A stretch of 6,659 nt of DNA from a virus (IMGVR_UViG_2537562019_000020), one strand, 5' to 3'. Shown: positions 1 through 6,659, counted from the first letter of the stretch. Numbers and translations: made by a program. Notes: a model not told the origin generated them from the sequence alone.

Positions 1-53
1 TGTAACTCCAAATTCTGGTCAAAAGTTGACACTCTCGCATAGCCGTATTGCAT
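1..53 (-). other. Mirror copy of invertase RBS, ATG and first 17 codons (MQYGYARVSTFDQNLELQ...), truncated by the window edge; a full or partial second invertase copy to the left cannot be distinguished
   Basis: Positions 51-53 are 'cat' (ATG on minus strand), corresponding to the invertase ATG at 3458-3460; 1-53 is the exact reverse complement of 3458-3510. Confidence 0.6.
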
Positions 54-117
54 ACTTTCTAACCTGCAATTGTTGCTGAAAGCGGGAAAAAATATCGTTC
101 AGACGACACGGAGGCAA

Positions 118-143
118 TTCTCAAAAACCTCGGTTTACAGGAA
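118..143. other. Left crossover site (gix/cix-like), TTCTCAAAAACC-TC-GGTTTACAGGAA
   Basis: 26 bp with 12-2-12 architecture: two imperfect inverted half-sites (consensus TTC..AAACC) around a central dinucleotide. The inner half-site TTCCTGTAAACC and the GA/TC core match Mu gix as I recall it. Partner site lies in inverted orientation at 3368-3393. Confidence 0.8.
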
Positions 144-167
144 ACGGTAAACAGGGCCAGGAACGCC

Positions 168-1124
168 GTGCAAAAGAATGGCGATACCTTGTCCGGTGGG
201 CTTACTTTTGAAAACGACTCTATCCTTGCCTGGATTCGAAATACTGACTGGGCGAAGATTGGATTTAAAAATGATGCTGATGGTGACACTGATTCATACA
301 TGTGGTTTGAAACAGGCGACAACGGCAATGAATATTTCAAATGGAGAAGCCGCCAGAGCACCACAACAAAAGACCTGATGAATCTTAAATGGGATGCTTT
401 GTCTGTCCTTGTTAAAGCCCTTTTCAGCAGTGAAGTAAAAATATCGACAGTCAATGCACTGAGGATATTTAATTCATCTTTTGGTGCTATTTTTCGTCGT
501 TCTGAAGAATGCCTGCATATCATCCCTACACGAGAGAATGAGGGAGAAAATGGTGATATAGGGCCACTACGCCCCTTTACGCTTAATCTTAGAACTGGTC
601 GGATAAGCATGGGGCATGGTCTTGATGTTACAGGGGATATATTTGCAAACCGTTTTGCTATTAACAGCAGTAATGGTATGTGGATTCAGATGCGCGATAA
701 CAACGCTATCTTTGGGAGAAATATAGTTAAAACTGATAGCGCCCAGGCATTGCTACGTCAGGACCATGCTGACCGCAAATTTATGATTGGTGGACTGGGG
801 AATAGGGAATTTGGCATCTACATGATTAATAACTCAAGGACAGACAATGGCACCGATGGTCAGGCGTACATGGATAATAACGGGAATTGGCTTTGCGGCT
901 CGCAAATTATTCCCGGCAATTATGGTAATTTTGACTCACGCTATGTTCGTGACGTTCGCATGGGTGCTAACCAGAGTGGGATTGTCTGGGGTGGTGATGG
1001 CGGAACGGTTCCAGCCGGATACGTTCTGACAGGTGGCAACTTTGATGATTCGAGAGAATGGCCTGTCTACGCTCCTGTTCAGAAATATATTAATGGTCAT
1101 TGGTACAATGTAGGACGTGCTTAA
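168..1124 (+). CDS. Tail-fibre variable C-terminal segment (Sv-like, receptor-binding part). Frame is open from 63 with no ATG/GTG/TTG before GTG at 168, so the true N-terminus is uncertain
   Basis: 318-aa ORF ending ...NFDSRYVRDVRMG...PVQKYINGHWYNVGRA, a C-terminal motif shared with the minus-strand fibre segment and typical of Mu S / P1 S-type fibres. Immediately followed by a chaperone gene. Possible SD AGGA at 159-162 five nt before GTG 168. Confidence 0.8.
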   Translation: MQKNGDTLSGGLTFENDSILAWIRNTDWAKIGFKNDADGDTDSYMWFETGDNGNEYFKWRSRQSTTTKDLMNLKWDALSVLVKALFSSEVKISTVNALRIFNSSFGAIFRRSEECLHIIPTRENEGENGDIGPLRPFTLNLRTGRISMGHGLDVTGDIFANRFAINSSNGMWIQMRDNNAIFGRNIVKTDSAQALLRQDHADRKFMIGGLGNREFGIYMINNSRTDNGTDGQAYMDNNGNWLCGSQIIPGNYGNFDSRYVRDVRMGANQSGIVWGGDGGTVPAGYVLTGGNFDDSREWPVYAPVQKYINGHWYNVGRA

Positions 1125-1125
1125 T

Positions 1126-1659
1126 ATGCAGCATTTAAAAAATATTAAAGCAGGAAATCCCAAAACTATCGAACAGTATCAACTTACAAAAGAATTTGAT
1201 GTTGTCTGGTTATGGTCGGAAGAAGGTAAGAACTGGTATGAGGAACAGAAAAATTTCCAGCCTGACACGTTAAAAGTGGCATATAACCAGGAGGGTGTTA
1301 TTTGCTGTATTGAGAAAGATGTATCCCTGATTAATCCAGAGGGAATGAGTGTGGTTGAGTTACCCAATATTACGGCAAACCGACGCGCTGATATTTCCGG
1401 CAACTGGATGTTCAAAGATGGCGTAGTGATAAAGCGAACTTATACCGAGGAAGAGCAGAGGCAACAAGCGGAAAATGAAAAGCAAAGCCTGCTACAGCTC
1501 GTCAGGGATAAAACACAGCTATGGGACTCACAGCTACGGCTGGGCATCATTTCCGACGAGAATAAACAAAAATTAACCGAGTGGATGCTCTATGCGCAGA
1601 AAGTCGAATCTACAGACACCTCCAGCCTGCCAGTAATATTTCCCGAACAACCTGAATGA
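1126..1659 (+). CDS. Tail-fibre assembly chaperone (Mu U / P1 U / Tfa family)
   Basis: ATG at 1126 lies 1 nt after the Sv stop (TAA 1122-1124), AGGA about 10 nt upstream. N-terminus [40 protein letters not shown] is near-identical to the N-terminus of the minus-strand paralogue at 1688-2215. The ORF track begins at GTG 1117; ATG 1126 is preferred. Confidence 0.85.
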   Translation: MQHLKNIKAGNPKTIEQYQLTKEFDVVWLWSEEGKNWYEEQKNFQPDTLKVAYNQEGVICCIEKDVSLINPEGMSVVELPNITANRRADISGNWMFKDGVVIKRTYTEEEQRQQAENEKQSLLQLVRDKTQLWDSQLRLGIISDENKQKLTEWMLYAQKVESTDTSSLPVIFPEQPE

Positions 1660-1662
1660 GAC

Positions 1663-1690
1663 AAGGCCCGATAGCGGGCCTTAATTTTTA
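1663..1690. terminator. Intrinsic terminator between the convergent chaperone genes; stronger for the plus-strand operon
   Basis: Stem 1663-1670 (aaggcccg) pairs with 1675-1682 (cgggcctt), loop atag, followed by aattttt on the plus strand. Sits between the U stop (1657-1659) and the U' stop (1688-1690). Confidence 0.55.
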
Positions 1691-2215
1691 TTCAGGCTTT
1701 TGTGGCCATTCGGGCTTTGCTGTATCCACACGGTTGACCAGAACGCTGTAGCGTTCCCATGACTCCAGTCGTGTACGCTCCTCATCCGTCGCCATATTCA
1801 GCCTGACAGCGCGTTCCAGTGGCTGAATAACGCTTTCAGCTTCAGAAAGCAACGCGGCCTTTTGTGATTCGGCCTGTTGTTGTTGCTCGTCTGCCGTATA
1901 AATCCGTTTAACCACAGCTCCGTCCCTAAACATCCACTTACCGGAATCATCAGCGCGGCGGTTGGCTGTAATATCTGGAACCTCAACGACGCTATAACCT
2001 TCAGGGTTAAGCGTGGAGGCATCTTTGGTGATGGCGACAATAATATTATTTGCATCGTAAACAATCTTTATTGTGTCTGGCTGAAAGTTTTTCACTTCCT
2101 CATACCAGTTTTTTCCGTCTTCGGACCATAACCAGATAACATCAAATTCTTTTGTAAGTTGATACTGTTCGATAGTTTTGGGATTACCTGCAGTAATATT
2201 TTTTAAATGCTGCAT
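1688..2215 (-). CDS. Tail-fibre assembly chaperone, alternative copy (U'-like)
   Basis: 175 aa. N-terminal 45 aa about 90% identical to U ([40 protein letters not shown]), C-terminal half divergent. ATG at 2215 sits 3 nt after the stop of the upstream fibre ORF. Confidence 0.85.
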
Positions 2216-2218
2216 AAA

Positions 2219-3376
2219 TTATACCTGTGCGACGTTATACCATGTGCCATTGATGTATTTTTGTATTGGTCTGAATACAGCCGGATCATCGCCATCAACA
2301 GCGCCAATAATGCCAAGCCCCGTAATTGCATGACCTGATTTCTCATACATCACGCCTTTTTGCATAGTCTGAACAACACGTGTACCAAGTCGGACATCTC
2401 TCACATAACGAGAATCAAAGTTACTCCAGTTGTTGGGGTTTATCTGACCGTTAACGGAGAACAATACTGAATTATCTGTATTTCTTTGACTATAAAAATG
2501 CCAACCTGAATCATCACCAAGTTCTGCAACTACGGGGCGGGATGAATTACCCCATAAATTAAACCTTGCATTCTTTGTGGAGTTGTTGGAGCTTGATAGC
2601 GAGAGTTTTTTACCATCTCCGGCCTGAATGTTTTTTAAAGCAATAGCCACGCCATTCTGGAAACGGAATACATGCTGACTATTAGCATAAACATCAAGAA
2701 GGCCATCGCCGTTCTGTTTGAAACCAGTATCATTATCCCCCAAAACAATCGAGTTACCGCCAAGAACACTGGATGTTCCGATGCCCAGTGCACCATTCAA
2801 TTGACCGCCAGATAATGACAACGCCCCAACCTCAGCAGCAGTCGGTTTAATGTGCGAACTGTAAATTACATATACAGTTCCATCTGTCAGGCCTGTTGGT
2901 TTATTCGCTGTATAAGTTGGTGATGTATGAATCGTTACGCTGGCGTTACTGGTATAATCCCACTGAATATTAACACCTGTGGCGTAATTACCTATTTCTA
3001 CATAAATGTCATAGGTATCACCGGATGTATTCACCCATGCAAAATGAGTAAATCCAACCGAGGTCCGTCGCCATAATGCACCAGTAATACCTTTTGGATT
3101 CCCATTTCCGGCACGCAGAACCAGCTCAGAGATGCCTGCTTGATGCGAGGAGCCAACGTTATACCCTGCGCCACCAATCAGGCTTATGTAAACCACGGAA
3201 CTGGCTTGTGGCATTGTTACAGTTGCCAGTTTGAACCATCCAGCACCACCACTAAAAGACATGGTTGTTGAATTTGTTGTGCCGATATTACGCAGGAATA
3301 GTTTTTTATCGGGAATATCTGCGCCGTTCTGGTTTTTCTGTAATGCGCCAGAAGCCTTATTTACCGTTTCCTGCAA
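2219..3376 (-). CDS. Tail-fibre variable C-terminal segment, alternative copy (Sv'-like). Frame is open up to 3448; the annotated start is a TTG inside the crossover site
   Basis: 385-aa ORF, Gly/Ser/Thr/Asn-rich, ending ...NFDSRYVRDVRLG...RPIQKYINGTWYNVAQV, paralogous to the end of the plus-strand fibre segment. Arrangement Sv-U / U'-Sv' is the classic Mu G / P1 C layout. Confidence 0.8.
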   Translation of the reverse strand: MQETVNKASGALQKNQNGADIPDKKLFLRNIGTTNSTTMSFSGGAGWFKLATVTMPQASSVVYISLIGGAGYNVGSSHQAGISELVLRAGNGNPKGITGALWRRTSVGFTHFAWVNTSGDTYDIYVEIGNYATGVNIQWDYTSNASVTIHTSPTYTANKPTGLTDGTVYVIYSSHIKPTAAEVGALSLSGGQLNGALGIGTSSVLGGNSIVLGDNDTGFKQNGDGLLDVYANSQHVFRFQNGVAIALKNIQAGDGKKLSLSSSNNSTKNARFNLWGNSSRPVVAELGDDSGWHFYSQRNTDNSVLFSVNGQINPNNWSNFDSRYVRDVRLGTRVVQTMQKGVMYEKSGHAITGLGIIGAVDGDDPAVFRPIQKYINGTWYNVAQV

Positions 3377-3393
3377 ACCGAGGTTTTTGAGAA
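3368..3393. other. Right crossover site (gix/cix-like), TTCCTGCAAACC-GA-GGTTTTTGAGAA
   Basis: Inverted copy of 118-143 with one mismatch; same 12-2-12 architecture with central GA. Lies 65 bp upstream of the invertase ATG. Confidence 0.8.
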
Positions 3394-3422
3394 TTGCCTC
3401 CGTGTCGTCTGAACGATATTTT
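3394..3422 (+). promoter_or_regulatory. Candidate sigma70 promoter of the invertase gene (TTGCCT-17-TATTTT), directly abutting the right crossover site
   Basis: Hexamers read by eye, each 4/6 to consensus with 17-bp spacing, about 36 bp upstream of ATG 3458. Weak call. Because it lies in the inverted repeat, a mirror copy exists at about 89-117 reading leftwards. Confidence 0.3.
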
Positions 3423-3457
3423 TTCCCGCTTTCAGCAACAATTGCAGGTTAGAAAGT

Positions 3458-4012
3458 ATGCAATACGGCTATGCGAGAGTGTCAACTTTTGACCAGAATT
3501 TGGAGTTACAACTGGAAGCGCTCAGGAGTTCAGGATGTGACCGGATTTTTGAAGATAAAATATCTGGCGCGAAGTCAAAACGACCAGGACTGGATAAGCT
3601 GATAAAAGCGTTACGACCGGGTGATACGGTTATTGTCTGGAAGCTGGACAGAATGGGGCGTTCTCTGATTCATCTTGTTGAATTGCTTAACTATTTTTTA
3701 TCAAACAACATTGAATTTATTTCTGTTACAGAAGGAATAAAAATTAGCACATCAATTGGCCGCTTTGCCTACACAATGCTGAGTGCGGTCGCAGAGATGG
3801 AGCGGGAAAATATTATTGAAAGAACGCGTGCAGGATTAGCGGTGGCAAGGGCTAACGGTAGGATAGGGGGGCGCCGCTCAAAACTGGCACCCGAGCAATG
3901 GGAACAGGTCGGAAGGCTTATTGTGAATGGTGTTTCACGTAAACAGATAGCGATTATCTTCGATGTTGCTTTATCCACGCTTTACCGCAGGTTTCCGGCT
4001 GGGAATCATTGA
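3458..4012 (+). CDS. Serine site-specific DNA invertase (Gin/Cin/Pin/Hin, Din family)
   Basis: 184 aa. N-terminal catalytic motif YARVST.DQ with Ser9; conserved VWKLDR.GRS; GRFAY..L.AVAEMERE.IIERT; GRIGGR; C-terminal HTH ...RKQIAIIFDVALSTLYRRFP. Overall strong resemblance to Pin/Cin as recalled. Confidence 0.92.
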   Translation: MQYGYARVSTFDQNLELQLEALRSSGCDRIFEDKISGAKSKRPGLDKLIKALRPGDTVIVWKLDRMGRSLIHLVELLNYFLSNNIEFISVTEGIKISTSIGRFAYTMLSAVAEMERENIIERTRAGLAVARANGRIGGRRSKLAPEQWEQVGRLIVNGVSRKQIAIIFDVALSTLYRRFPAGNH

Positions 4013-4034
4013 CTGGAGTACAACCATAAATCAA

Positions 4035-4057
4035 TATCCCCTGCAATGCAGGGGATA
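4035..4057. terminator. Perfect palindrome TATCCCCTGCA-a-TGCAGGGGATA between convergent invertase and sopB; candidate bidirectional terminator or protein-binding site
   Basis: 10-bp stem (4035-4044 / 4048-4057) with 3-nt loop, GC-rich core; flanked by cttctt on the plus strand and a moderately U-rich tract on the minus strand. Centred in the 49-bp gap between the invertase stop (4010-4012) and the sopB stop (4062-4064). Confidence 0.4.
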
Positions 4058-4061
4058 CTTC

Positions 4062-5027
4062 TTAAGTATCAGTAGATTGTTCCTCTAGTAACAACTCAAT
4101 TCTGCTTAGTATTTCTTTAGATATTTTGCGGCTATCAATTTTTATAGTTACAAAATTACCTTTATATCTAGCAGTGATCCCTTCCCCATATTTTTTCTCG
4201 TCTTTTGTTTTTTCCTCGTCGCCAACCAGAACAGAGTCAGATAATATTTGTATAATCCGTGAAGATTCTAAATCCTCGCCGTTTTTTTTAATTGCCAGAA
4301 GATGATGAGCAGCATTGCTCATGGCAGCCATGTTTTTTTTGTAAACCTTAAACAAAGAATCTCCAGCACGAGCTGACAGTTCTCCTGGATGATTGAAGAT
4401 AGCTAATATATCTTTTGGTAGACCAGCTGTATTGATACAGCGAGTGATAATATTTCTATCTATATTTTCAGCCTCGGCTAATGCTTTAACGTTACCATCA
4501 AAGTCATTTAGCTTGCGTAAGTATCTCTTTCCTCTTTCGTATGCACTAATAGGCCTATAATCGTTACCAATTTGGGATAACCAATGCATCTGTTCATCGT
4601 CGAGATCACCAATTAAGACGCGATAGTCACATCCTGTTAATATCGCTGCTTTTCTTCTACGTGAGCCGTCAGCGACTTCAACGATTCCAGATACTTTTCT
4701 GGCGAAAGCTGGATTTTGTTGTCCAGACGTTAGAAAAGATGGGATTAAATCGGCTAGAGAGGATTCATTTAATAAATCTTGATCGCGTTCATTACCTAGC
4801 CATACCATTGTTGCCATTTCAACTTTATCTGCGGGAATTGTCTCTAACTTAAAGTTAACATTACGTCCGCATACTGGCAAAGTTATGCTGTTACCGGTTA
4901 ATGAGCTCAGTTGACGTTTTAAATCACCAACCATAGGTGATACGGGCTGATGTTCAGGGGCATGATGATTATTACTCATAATGCGATTAATATCTGGAGC
5001 ATTTTTCAGAAGAGAGCGCTGTTTCAT
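4062..5027 (-). CDS. sopB: Plasmid partition protein SopB (ParB family, type Ia centromere-binding)
   Basis: 321 aa. Motifs matching F SopB as recalled: ITLPVCGR.V.F; GNERDQ.LL; DLIPSFL.TGQQ.PAF.R.VSG; ADGSRRRKAA (ParB arginine motif); LSQ/R.GNDYRP.SAYERG; ITRCINTA.LPK; F.HPGELSAR.GD. Start ATG overlaps the sopA stop (TAATG at 5025-5029). Confidence 0.85.
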   Translation of the reverse strand: MKQRSLLKNAPDINRIMSNNHHAPEHQPVSPMVGDLKRQLSSLTGNSITLPVCGRNVNFKLETIPADKVEMATMVWLGNERDQDLLNESSLADLIPSFLTSGQQNPAFARKVSGIVEVADGSRRRKAAILTGCDYRVLIGDLDDEQMHWLSQIGNDYRPISAYERGKRYLRKLNDFDGNVKALAEAENIDRNIITRCINTAGLPKDILAIFNHPGELSARAGDSLFKVYKKNMAAMSNAAHHLLAIKKNGEDLESSRIIQILSDSVLVGDEEKTKDEKKYGEGITARYKGNFVTIKIDSRKISKEILSRIELLLEEQSTDT

Positions 5028-6193
5028 TATTCGTTCTCCCAGCGAGGTTTTATTAGATCATCAAAAATTTCTCGGCAAACAGGGTCCCATATAGAAACAG
5101 CATTTCTCCATGCATTCAATGTTGAACGTTGGTTTGCTGCTTGTTCAAATACTGTTCTCATTTTTATCTGGCCTTTACCTACTTCATCGGTAACGCGTAC
5201 AACCTGACGTAATACCATTGATCCCCATGTATTTCTTATTTGTTCTTCCATCCATCGTGATTGATTCCCTGTAGTGAGACTATATTTAGTCAGAAGTAAG
5301 CGAACGGTTGGCTCAAATCCACCTAGGTCAACGCTTTCCAATAGATCGAGAAGCATTGTGAAAAACTGCAGAACAGAAGCGTAATCAAATAATTCTGCAG
5401 GTGTAGCAACAACAATAACGTCAGCGGCACAAACAACGTTAATGGTTCCTGTACCGAGGTTCGGAGCACTATCTATAACGATAACATCGTAGTTATCCCA
5501 AACTGATTCAATAGCTGCGCGTAGCATAAGGTGTGGAGGATGAGGCAATTTACCCTGAGCATGATATTGCATGAGATCTGTTTCTATACGATGTAAAGCT
5601 AGGCAGCTAGGGATAATGTCTAGCCCAGGCCAACATGTTGGCTTTATAGCATATTCAGCGTTATCGCGTTCTCCTAAGTAAAATGGCAGTAAAGTATCCT
5701 CGGCATGGATATGTAAATCAGGAACATAACCGTGATACATAGAGGCCGTGCCTTGAGGATCGTTACCTTCAACCAAAAGAACACGATGACCTTGTAATGC
5801 TAACCATTGAGCTTGATGCACCGCAGACGATGTTTTATAAACGCCGCCTTTGTGTGACATAACGGCAAGCACAACAGGGTTTTTATCTTGTGGTCGTTGG
5901 TTTGGGTTGCCAAAAACTGCTCGCATACTGTTGATTTGATCTATGGTATAACCAGCACGACGTTCAATTCTTCCTCTCATTTCAAAGTCAGGTGCAGGTA
6001 AACGCCCGCTCTTTTCAGCATCTCTAATTGCTTGAGGAGTTACACCAATTAAATCTGCTACTTCAGTTATACCCCATCGGCGGGGGATACGCCGAGCTTC
6101 AGGACTATCATCACCGAATTGAGCGATAGCAATTGCTTTGGTCATTTCTTGACCTCTCGTAACACAATCTTGCAATAACTTTTTCAAAGACAT
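5027..6193 (-). CDS. sopA: Plasmid partition ATPase SopA (ParA family, type Ia with N-terminal regulatory extension)
   Basis: 388 aa. Deviant Walker A KGGVYKTS; long blocks near-identical to F SopA as recalled (EMTKAIAIAQF.DDSPEAR, VEGNDPQGTASMYHGYVPDLHIHAEDTLLPFYLGE, IKPTCWPGLDIIPSCLALHRIETDLM, VIVIDSAPNLG.GTINVVCAADV, WMEEQIR..WGSMVL, TDEVGKGQIKMRTVFEQA, IKPRWE). GGAG SD 7-10 nt upstream of the ATG at 6191-6193. Confidence 0.92.
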   Translation of the reverse strand: MSLKKLLQDCVTRGQEMTKAIAIAQFGDDSPEARRIPRRWGITEVADLIGVTPQAIRDAEKSGRLPAPDFEMRGRIERRAGYTIDQINSMRAVFGNPNQRPQDKNPVVLAVMSHKGGVYKTSSAVHQAQWLALQGHRVLLVEGNDPQGTASMYHGYVPDLHIHAEDTLLPFYLGERDNAEYAIKPTCWPGLDIIPSCLALHRIETDLMQYHAQGKLPHPPHLMLRAAIESVWDNYDVIVIDSAPNLGTGTINVVCAADVIVVATPAELFDYASVLQFFTMLLDLLESVDLGGFEPTVRLLLTKYSLTTGNQSRWMEEQIRNTWGSMVLRQVVRVTDEVGKGQIKMRTVFEQAANQRSTLNAWRNAVSIWDPVCREIFDDLIKPRWENE

Positions 6194-6214: not shown

Positions 6215-6292
6215 CTTTGCTTAATAATTAAATCTTTGCTTATTTCTAGCAAATTTGCATGAAAAAGGCAAAGCAAAACGAAAAACGCAAAG
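6215..6292 (-). promoter_or_regulatory. sopAB promoter/operator: four CTTTGC hexamers in dyad arrangement around a central GCAAATTTGC palindrome
   Basis: CTTTGC at 6215-6220 and 6234-6239; GCAAAG (inverted) at 6268-6273 and 6287-6292; central palindrome at 6249-6258. Hexamer centres are symmetric at 17 and 36 bp from the dyad centre (6253/6254). Candidate minus-strand promoter TTGCTA (6252-6247) -17- AATTAT (6229-6224). The F sopAB operator is known to use four CTTTGC SopA-binding repeats. Confidence 0.6.
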
Positions 6293-6481: not shown

Positions 6482-6626
6482 AAGAACACAAATAAAGAAC
6501 ACAAAAGCAAGGTAATGACAAAAGCATAGTAAAGAACACAAATAAAGAATTAAAGCCAATGTTAAATGAAAGAAGTCGCAGTCTGAGAACATTACACTAA
6601 AAGAGAACATTAATCAAGAACACAAC
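6482..6626. repeat. Cluster of short direct repeats of the AGAACA family in an AT-rich non-coding region
   Basis: Exact 18-bp direct repeat AAGAACACAAATAAAGAA at 6482-6499 and 6532-6549; further AAGAACACA copies at 6495-6503 and 6616-6624; GAGAACATTA at 6585-6594 and 6603-6612. Confidence 0.7.
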
Positions 6627-6641
6627 GGAACATAATTCCCC

Positions 6642-6659
6642 ATTATACGCGCGTATAAT
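6642..6659. other. Perfect palindrome ATTATACGCGCGTATAAT at the window edge; candidate protelomerase (TelN-type) telomere resolution site, or the edge of a hairpin telomere
   Basis: 18-bp self-complementary sequence centred at 6650/6651, truncated by the window end. The core TATACGCGCGTATA matches my recollection of the phage N15 telO core; the left flank (6623-6641) also resembles the N15 telRL left arm. Adjacent to sopA, as in N15-like plasmid-prophages. Confidence 0.55.

Follow-up and report, generated by a model that had tools for sequence, protein, structure and literature searches.

An invertible tail-fibre-tip module of the Mu/P1 type next to sopAB and a telomere site in a probable N15-like element of E. 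coli

Why does a phage contig that ends in a telomere site and a pair of plasmid partition genes also carry what looks like the tail-fibre inversion switch of phages Mu and P1, and does that switch flip? We analyzed a stretch of 6,659 nucleotides (the window), which is the entire draft contig APXB01000010.1. Read from the right, the window has a hairpin telomere, then sopA, then sopB, and then a module composed of a G-type invertible segment and an invertase gene. We conclude that the system is an ordinary DNA flip switch of the Mu/P1 type by which a phage exchanges its tail-fibre tip, a known mechanism on a new carrier. Our overall account, to which we assign a probability of about 0.88, is that of a Gin-type fibre-tip switch on an N15-like element, with the contig holding an inverted-state junction.

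Crossover sites, fibre tips and invertase

The window contained two inverted gix-like sites. We searched with the true Mu gix sequence (from NC_000929) and found exactly two matches, at 118-143 (+ strand, 2 mismatches) and 3368-3393 (– strand, 3 mismatches), the same two 26-bp sites that had been called gix-like in the initial annotation. There were no matches in 200 shuffles of the sequence (0 expected by chance), and no further gix-like sites in the window even with a relaxed core pattern. Both sites have 12-bp half-sites around a 2-bp core, and the two copies are inverted; the left site reads TTCTCAAAAACC TC GGTTTACAGGAA and the reverse complement of the right site reads TTCTCAAAAACC TC GGTTTGCAGGAA. 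The core is the same in both, TC at 130-131 and GA at 3380-3381, and the segment is therefore 3,250 bp, in agreement with the earlier estimate of about 3.25 kb.

The segment contains two convergent pairs of genes, each pair with an alternative fibre C-terminus followed by its own Tfa-type chaperone. Sv, the first alternative C-terminal segment (131-1124, + strand), matched Pfam Gp34_trimer (E = 9.6e-12) and was 69% identical to Mu S and 68% identical to P1 S. Its frame is open from 63 to 1124, with an in-frame TAA at 60-62. Sv is followed by a tail fibre assembly chaperone of the Mu/P1 U' type (1126-1659, + strand; Pfam Caudo_TAP, E = 8.5e-36; 87% identical to Mu U'). Sv', the second alternative C-terminal segment (2219-3380, – strand), adjoins the invertase gene and is in the silent position in this contig. 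The final 89 amino acids of Sv' were 68.5% identical to the C-terminus of P1 S, and its chaperone is of the Mu/P1 U type (1688-2215, – strand; Pfam Caudo_TAP, E = 2.8e-37; 94% identical to P1 U). Between the convergent chaperone genes is a GC-rich hairpin followed by a T run (1663-1682, + strand) that resembles a terminator. These Pfam matches and identities to Mu and P1 proteins bear out the two oppositely oriented fibre-chaperone pairs described initially. The homology searches proposed at that time succeeded for Sv, both chaperones, and the invertase, and a Pfam search with Sv' gave no match.

The gene beyond the right site (3458-4012, + strand) encodes an intact serine DNA invertase of 184 amino acids with Ser9 and a C-terminal HTH, as had been predicted. 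The protein matched Pfam Resolvase (E = 2.9e-45) and HTH_7 (E = 1e-13) and was 55% identical to Gin and 57% identical to Cin. Its best solved relative was Gin (PDB 3uj3, E = 1.8e-62), compared to 1.7e-31 for gamma-delta resolvase, and by these sequence comparisons the protein is nearer to the invertases than to the resolvases. Residues Y5, R7, S9, R65, and R68 were invariant in an alignment with Gin and Cin; Gin uses Ser9 as its linking residue (PMC3575834). [quoted passage not shown]

The region of the invertase that would contact an enhancer was less typical. The basic helix B clamps enhancer DNA, Lys or Arg occupies Hin positions 48 and 51, and the position of Hin Lys47 was lysine in all 15 invertases aligned, described as 'always lysine' (PMC3798978). 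The window invertase has D46, K47, and K50, with Asp at the Hin Lys47 position and two of the three basic residues retained. The same Asp is present in the homologues from ATCC 25922 and contig L001, and we conclude that the helix-B lysine is conserved without strictly defining the family. Invertases of this family have a recombinational enhancer in cis, with two Fis sites, within the 5' portion of the invertase gene. The counterpart of the P1 enhancer (annotated at cin nt 19-90) aligned without gaps, with 61-64% nucleotide identity versus 55-56% in the remainder of the gene; identity at third codon positions was about 33-42%, and conservation was not above that of the rest of the gene. A promoter scan upstream of the invertase called none. 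The leader (3394-3457, + strand) has a weak promoter-like TTGCCT-17-TATTTT, with 8 of 12 matches by eye and a score under the scan threshold.

In the proposed mechanism, dimers of the 184-amino-acid invertase would bind the two inverted sites, and the sites would synapse, most likely on an enhancer bound by Fis, like those of Gin, Cin, and Hin. Ser9 would cut all four strands at the central TC/GA dinucleotide, half of the tetramer would turn 180 degrees, and religation would flip the 3,250 bp between the sites. The constant part of stf, a lambda-type side tail fibre gene, is immediately outside the left site and off this contig. It would be joined in one state to Sv, followed by the U'-type chaperone, and in the other state to Sv', followed by the U-type chaperone. 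With stf reading into Sv or Sv', the receptor-binding fibre tip on a virion would thus be one of two kinds. Because the J tail tip is also present in the phage, the switch probably modulates adsorption via the side fibres rather than being the only choice of receptor. The sites, the genes, the family of the invertase, the interval of exchange, and the two orientations among relatives are all observed, whereas we infer both the dependence on Fis and an enhancer and the effect on host range.

The left end of the contig and the two orientations

The left end of the window is part of a flipped-state junction. Bases 1-117 (– strand) are an inverted copy of 3394-3510, that is, the invertase upstream region and the first 53 nt of the invertase gene, and make up the outer flank of the junction at the contig end. 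The inverted repeat is 157 nt long (1-157 versus 3354-3510, 98% identical) and reaches base 1 of the window; bases 1-130 reproduce 3381-3510 exactly in reverse complement, and the match is exact for bases 1-136. We considered bases 1-117 as the constant part of the fibre gene and rejected this, as they run antisense to the leader and the region around the start codon of the invertase. The constant 5' part of the fibre gene and its late promoter are absent from the window.

The initial annotation had called the switch complete, with the fibre frame reading through the crossover site. The constant fibre part is missing and the left flank is the inverted invertase-side flank, so the window itself does not hold a complete switch. 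The frame does read through on the inner side of the site. On the outer side it continues only as a 23-codon open stretch, antisense to the invertase leader, that is accidental. The peptide '...ILKN' placed upstream of the site is not fibre sequence, because bases 1-117 are antisense to the invertase leader; in relatives, the genuine constant part has the sequence ...AAVIEYLGLQETVN. A contig of another strain, L007, was 99.93% identical to the window over 118-6116, with the identity beginning exactly at 118, and its first 505 nt were 100% identical to stf in N15-like contigs with J, lom, and stf. The constant part is at the left site in this near-identical contig and also in L001, L008 to L010, L012, and L013. 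Because these relatives carry it outside the left site, the constant part belongs to the element and not to the window.

Both states of the junction on the invertase side, Sv-gix-invertase and Sv'-gix-invertase, are present in the contig. We compared the four types of junction: Sc-Sv, found in L007 (Sv is joined to the Stf constant part in both L007 and L009); invertase-Sv', found at the right junction of the window and in L007; invertase-Sv, found at the left junction of the window and in L014; and Sc-Sv', found in L005, where Sv' is joined to a fibre constant part. The flank markers switch somewhere from 126 to 137, with the TC core inside this interval, and the left site combines the outer half-site of the invertase side with the inner half-site of the Sv side. 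The exact runs common to the two parental junctions around the core were only 10 nt and 14 nt, too short for the assembler alone to have made the hybrid junction. The Sv and Sv' ends are both joined to one invertase flank, and the sequenced DNA would therefore have held both states. Taken by itself, the structure of the contig is best explained by a culture that held both orientations, and the left end of the contig is in all likelihood the place where the assembler stopped.

Both orientations were also found among relatives, as judged from assemblies. The plasmid of E. coli ATCC 25922 has been assembled in both orientations, and the sister Yersinia phages vB_YpM_39 and vB_YpM_44 matched the segment in opposite orientations. 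The fold-back contig L009 has two arms with the segment in opposite relative orientation, the orientation differs between L007 and L014, and L017 begins one base past the Sv/Sv' branch point. Together with the contig itself, these assemblies partly answer the question, raised initially, of whether both orientations are present in one population.

Two other explanations concern where the junctions come from. The 157-nt terminal inverted repeat could be real within a single molecule, with a truncated second invertase start to the left of the segment and the fibre gene lost, for example through a rearrangement or in an inverted-dimer derivative. This is compatible with the window alone, since the deposited contig has exactly such an arrangement. 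However, the repeat ends at base 1 of the whole contig, a typical signature of an assembly break, and L007 and all ten longer contigs with an identical invertase have one invertase only. The identical-invertase contigs extending as far as the left site carry the stf constant part at it, and in L014, which has the same left junction (100% identical over window 1-1185, 1,185 nt), the junction runs on normally into sopBA, the telomere, and telN. We consider a repeat within one molecule to be very unlikely. It is also improbable that the two junction types come from two loci with near-identical G segments in fixed opposite orientations, such as one in a P2-type prophage and one in an N15-like plasmid. 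A G segment of this sort does exist in L005, from a draft genome in the same accession series; it is 100% identical over window 549-3384 and is joined to a P2-type H gene, and the contig is chromosomal and 442 kb long. Assembly through 435 nt of identical constant-part sequence may have made L005 a chimera, and the exact U-type chaperone protein was found on only one contig per genome. Furthermore, the left flank (1-130) was 100% identical to the N15-side invertase flank, whereas the flank of the P2-type phage-plasmids was only ~92% identical.

The switch might also be a fossil in which the sites and invertase remain, inversion has ceased, and the differences in orientation reflect old events. 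The ordinary conservation of the P1-enhancer counterpart, the Asp at the Hin Lys47 position, and the lack of a called promoter for the invertase would all fit with this. Nonetheless, the invertase is intact and keeps every residue invariant between Gin and Cin, and assemblies of one strain, ATCC 25922, differ in orientation only. Both states are found inside single assemblies (the window and L009), and elements that are 99.9-100% identical are found in both orientations (L007 versus L014), making a fossil switch the least likely of these explanations. We favor a Gin-type switch on an N15-like element, with both states in the sequenced culture.

The N15-like backbone

The module is next to partition genes and a telomere site like those of N15. 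The edges of the G-plus-invertase module are the outer border of the left gix site (118) and approximately 4017-4019, just past the invertase stop codon. A hairpin with a 12-bp stem (4033-4059, – strand) is between the invertase gene and sopB, and the shared module stops just before it. sopB (4062-5027, – strand) encodes the centromere-binding partition protein (NCBIfam PRK13698, E = 5.4e-122; Pfam SoPB_HTH), and sopA (5027-6193, – strand) encodes the partition ATPase (NCBIfam PRK13705 SopA, 731 bits versus a cut-off of 725). telL, the left half of the telomere resolution site, is at 6630-6659 with its dyad centre at 6650/6651. The telomere core, CCATTATACGCGCGTATAATGG, is identical to that of N15 telRL, the annotated cut site of N15 aligns with 6650/6651, and the contig ends 9 nt beyond this point. 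These matches confirm the sopAB and telomere-like neighbours reported in the initial annotation.

Related contigs extend the resemblance to N15. L009 and L012 fold back exactly at the telomere dyad centre, and genes for protelomerase (TelN) and a RepA-type protein are found beyond the telomere end in L008, L010, L011, and L014 to L017, in which the invertase is identical and sopAB are 98.5-99.9% identical to those of the window. We believe that the window is very probably the left end of an N15-like linear plasmid-prophage of E. coli.

In N15 and in telomere phages like PhiR46_1, sopB and sopA likewise adjoin the telomere site with its identical 22-bp core, and sopB follows the last of the tail genes; in this type of phage, the switch just occupies the place where the tail operon ends. 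In contrast to the window, N15 and PhiR46_1 have neither an invertase nor an invertible fibre segment next to sopB, and this invertase adjoins sopB in only 1 of 5,426 complete E. coli genomes. It was fair to call the location unusual.

Relation to known switches

The systems of Mu and P1 are among the nearest known to this one. As in Mu G/Gin, the 26-bp sites (24/26 and 23/26 identical to gix) have TC as their core, the segment measures ~3 kb and holds S/U and S'/U' pairs that converge, and the invertase gene is directly beyond the right site and follows the same logic of spacing; Ser9 and the equivalents of Hin Q151/R154/L155 are conserved. Unlike in Mu, Asp occupies the Hin Lys47 position in the invertase, whose identity to Gin is only 55%, the fibre belongs to a siphovirus-like N15 relative and is a side fibre of the lambda type (Stf) and not a myovirus fibre, and the carrier is a linear plasmid-prophage and not a transposing phage. 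The pairing is also reshuffled, with a Mu S-like tip beside a U'-like chaperone. P1 C/Cin, together with the related systems of P7 and p15B (Min), shares the invertase family (57% identity to Cin), the chaperones (94% to P1 U), and the plasmid-prophage lifestyle. However, the cix sites differ from the sites here, and Cin and the window invertase are on opposite sides relative to the fibre constant part. The P1 segment has inverted repeats of ~0.6 kb in its interior. The Min system of p15B has several crossover sites, whereas the window has only two, and the multi-site feature of that system (more than two sites) is absent.

The same G-plus-invertase module is present in ~48-kb phage-plasmids with P2-type tails (the ATCC 25922 plasmid, vB_YpM_39, and vB_YpM_44), for which both orientations are on record. 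Their invertase, including that of the ATCC 25922 plasmid, is 94% identical in protein and about 92% identical in DNA. Homology of these phage-plasmids to the window stops sharply at 118 and 4019. They differ from the window in having P2-type baseplate and tail genes on a circular RepA plasmid and in lacking sopAB, the telomere, and the protelomerase.

We take the sharp borders of the module to be a record of the exchange of a host-range cassette among very different types of phage. A broader interpretation, which is speculative and which we regard as rather unlikely as a whole, combines 118-4019 as a portable host-range cassette, plasmid copies in mixed states, and a subgroup of invertases with changed enhancer dependence. 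If it were true, the G-plus-invertase unit would have moved among P2-type phage-plasmids, Mu-like and P2-like prophages, and an N15-like telomere phage. Copies of the multicopy linear plasmid-prophage could then differ in state, such that one lysogen could release a burst of mixed tropism, and enhancer dependence may be relaxed or altered in the subgroup of invertases that have Asp in place of Hin Lys47.

Because the mechanism is textbook, the biological surprise is small; what is of interest is that a telomere (N15-like) phage-plasmid carries a fibre switch of the Gin type, a combination for which we found no published description. There is also a practical point, in that the two states of an invertible segment can both be preserved at contig ends. 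This affects the annotation of draft genomes because a gene caller would see a 'fibre' ORF running into the antisense of the invertase leader.

Crossover sites, invertase and fibre tips

The DNA encodes an invertible tail-fibre switch, a known kind of system and one that was called correctly in the initial annotation, in an N15-like carrier for which our searches gave no earlier description. The window, 6,659 bases long, corresponds base for base to a complete draft contig, APXB01000010.1 (assembly GCA_000356365.2). A fibre C-terminal segment with a Gp34_trimer domain, Sv (open frame 63-1124), and the first tail fibre assembly chaperone (1126-1659, Caudo_TAP) are on the plus strand and are followed by a hairpin (1663-1682). 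The second chaperone (1688-2215, Caudo_TAP) and second fibre C-terminal segment, Sv' (2219-3380), are on the minus strand. Beyond these are a serine recombinase with Resolvase and HTH_7 domains (3458-4012, plus strand), sopB (4062-5027) and sopA (5027-6193), both on the minus strand, and, at the right end, half of a telomere palindrome that closes an A/T-rich region. There were no Rfam matches in the entire window at E values up to 0.1. Literature searches found nothing relevant on fibre inversion in telomere phages or N15-like phages.

The two gix-like sites are real matches to the crossover site of Mu. We used as query the Mu genome sequence at the annotated boundaries of the G segment, which on both sides is TTATCCAAAACCTCGGTTTACAGGAA. 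It matched the window exactly twice, at 118-143 (plus strand, two mismatches) and 3368-3393 (minus strand, three mismatches), and did not match any of 200 shuffled versions of the window. The central dinucleotides (TC at 130-131 and GA at 3380-3381) define a segment of 3,250 bp. A relaxed search of the window for the core palindrome found no site beyond these two, and thus none of the extra sites of a Min-like system, indicating that the switch has two states and is not a Min-like multi-site system.

The recombinase is an intact serine invertase, as had been proposed. It is 55% identical to Gin of Mu and 57% identical to Cin of P1, and the alignment with these proteins shows no change at Ser9 or at any other catalytic residue. 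Its best relative of solved structure is Gin (E = 1.8e-62), compared to 1.7e-31 for gamma-delta resolvase. The anatomy of the region and the family of the enzyme point to the Gin/Hin mechanism as the most likely one. Dimers would sit on the two inverted sites and bring them into synapsis, Ser9-linked double-strand breaks would be made at the 2-bp core, and rotation of subunits by 180 degrees would be followed by religation (PMC3575834).

We infer that the invertase probably depends on Fis and an enhancer. Three residues of Hin, Q151, R154, and L155, are proposed to contact Fis and are conserved only in Fis-dependent invertases (PMC3798978). The equivalents are present here (Q150, R153, and L154), which counts in favor of Fis dependence. 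Two other features are against it or neutral. The position of Hin Lys47, a lysine in all 15 aligned DNA invertases (PMC3798978), is an aspartate (residue 46, window 3593-3595), as it is in the closest homologues, those of ATCC 25922 and NZ_CP148365.1. Additionally, the region matching the annotated P1 enhancer had no excess nucleotide or third-position conservation relative to the rest of the gene, which would likewise be against, or neutral on, this dependence. A promoter scan called none upstream of the invertase.

The proposal of two pairs of fibre tip and chaperone was borne out by domain matches and by identities to Mu and P1. Both chaperones are Caudo_TAP proteins (E = about 1e-36 to 1e-37 in a domain search), one with 87% identity to Mu U' and the other with 94% identity to P1 U. 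Identity between Sv and the variable part of Mu S is 69%, and the C-terminal 89 residues of Sv' match the end of P1 S at 68.5% identity. Inversion would change the distal tip and the matching chaperone of a lambda-type side fibre. Because the phage also encodes a J-type tail tip, we expect inversion to shift the spectrum of adsorption and not to act as an all-or-none switch of receptor.

The pairing of fibres and chaperones (131-2215) is mosaic relative to Mu: a Mu S-like tip (69%) precedes the U'-like chaperone (87%), and the U-like chaperone (94% to P1 U) is paired with the other tip, whose last 89 amino acids are P1 S-like. A second inverted repeat, of 150 nt and 90% identity (1125-1274 and 2067-2216), is inside the invertible segment and spans the conserved 5' ends of both chaperone genes.

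The left end of the contig

The left end of the contig is invertase flank and not fibre. The sites are embedded in an inverted repeat that is 157 nt long rather than 26 bp (1-157 and 3354-3510, 98% identity) and reaches the first base of the contig. Bases 1-136 are the exact reverse complement of 3375-3510, a stretch that includes the leader of the invertase gene and its first 53 nt, and therefore bases 1-117 are not the constant part of the fibre gene (Sc). The fibre frame thought to read through the site (...ILKNLGLQETVN...) continues upstream for only 23 open codons, to a TAA at 60-62, and there it is antisense to the invertase leader.

The sequence expected at this position was found in L007 (APZB01000145.1), a contig from another strain. 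Over window 118-6116 the two agree at 99.93%, and the agreement starts precisely at position 118, where the site has its outer edge. Upstream of the site, L007 encodes ...TKVGRDILAKSTVAAVIEYLGLQETVN, and its upstream 505 nt are 100% identical to stf of longer N15-like contigs, in which the order is J, lom, stf (PF08400), tfa, tfa', Sv', invertase, sopB, sopA, and telN. A closed relative, NZ_CP148365.1, has the same layout. We considered whether the constant part in L007 came from a P2-type H gene and rejected this: the 505 nt match stf of the N15-like contigs L009 and L010 at 100%, whereas their identity to the P2-type contig L005 is just 98.6%. Because bases 1-117 of the window are invertase flank where L007 has stf, the switch in the window is incomplete, and the constant part of the side tail fibre and the late promoter are beyond the end of the contig.

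Junctions in both orientations

All four kinds of junction could be read from near-identical elements. Sc-TTATCGAATACC TC GGTTTACAGGAA-Sv is in L007, and Sc-TTATCGAATACC TC GGTTTGCAGGAA-Sv' is in L005. The invertase flank is joined to Sv' (flank-TTCTCAAAAACC TC GGTTTGCAGGAA-Sv') at the right junction of the window and in L007, and to Sv (flank-TTCTCAAAAACC TC GGTTTACAGGAA-Sv) at the left junction of the window and in another contig, L014. L014 is 100% identical to the left junction over 1,185 nt and continues into sopBA, the telomere site, and telN. Thus, the contig carries the invertase-side junction in both states. Of the initial annotation, the kind of system stands and the word "complete" does not, as the contig breaks on the left at an inversion-state junction.

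The interval in which the flank markers switch, between 126 and 137, encloses the TC core, as would be predicted by cleavage and exchange at the central dinucleotide. We considered that the left end might be an in-silico chimera formed via the gix repeat. The exact runs common to the two parental junctions around the core are only 10 nt and 14 nt, so an assembler needs reads that hold the hybrid junction, and we rejected the chimera. On the simplest interpretation, both orientations were present together in the DNA that was sequenced, a mixture that would plausibly fit a multicopy plasmid-prophage.

Both orientations were also found among relatives. The 48.5-kb plasmid of E. coli ATCC 25922 encodes an invertase that is 94% identical in protein, and the deposited sequences NZ_CP009073.1 and NZ_CP158444.1 differ in the tip to which the plasmid's fibre gene is fused. 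The sister Yersinia phages vB_YpM_39 and vB_YpM_44 have opposite orientations in their matches to the window. L009 (WUUG01000004.1), which encodes an identical invertase protein, contains a 6.5-kb fold-back (8325-14876) whose arms have the segment in opposite relative orientation. Another contig, L017, starts one base past the first difference between Sv and Sv' inside the site. Most contigs with exactly the same invertase are 2-5 kb, sizes that would fit breaks at the right site and the telomere, which are 3.27 kb apart.

The fold-back in L009 is centered on the telomere dyad (window 6650/6651), and the copies of the G segment (5057-8354 and 14839-18139) have the same absolute direction on both arms, so that one is flipped relative to its flanks. 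This arrangement points to reads from different molecules or a head-to-head replication intermediate. In L005 (APYZ01000034.1 of assembly GCA_000358875.1, the end of a 442-kb contig), positions 1-3350 correspond to window 549-3393; on this contig P2 baseplate genes come after an H fibre gene of the P2 type, and the sequence ends inside Sv. It matches the N15-like element at 100% over the last 435 nt of its constant part and over the entire G segment, reflecting either very recent sharing of the cassette between two types of prophage or an assembly chimera via the identical stretch.

Telomere and carrier

The contig ends 9 nt beyond the center of the telomere palindrome. The palindrome has the same 22-bp core as N15 telRL, base for base, and when the two are aligned the cut site annotated in N15 falls at 6650/6651. 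Two contigs, L009 and L012, fold back exactly at this position, as expected of a covalently closed hairpin end.

N15 and PhiR46_1 lack an invertase in the interval from their fibre genes to sopB, and the invertase adjoins sopB in only 1 of 5,426 complete E. coli genomes. The invertase itself is present in 53 of the 5,426; most of these copies are about 92% identical and are carried by ~48-kb phage-plasmids whose tails are of the P2 type. Matches to other elements end abruptly at 118 and about 4019, so the segment and invertase together look like a module acquired by an N15-like backbone where its tail operon ends. The breakpoint at 4017-4019 is sharp: the match between the window and most closed N15-like plasmids, which have a tail fibre assembly gene adjoining sopB, begins only at 4017, and that with P2-type phage-plasmids extends no further than 4019.

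Beside the telomere half-site, a stretch of 143 nt (6483-6625) contains four exact copies of AGAACACAA, with related GAGAACAT motifs at 6585-6610; these may be accessory repeats bound by protelomerase or a partition protein. Directly upstream of sopA (6234-6273) is an imperfect 40-nt palindrome, CTTTGCTTATTTCTAGCAAATTTGCATGAAAAAGGCAAAG, that could be an operator or partition site.
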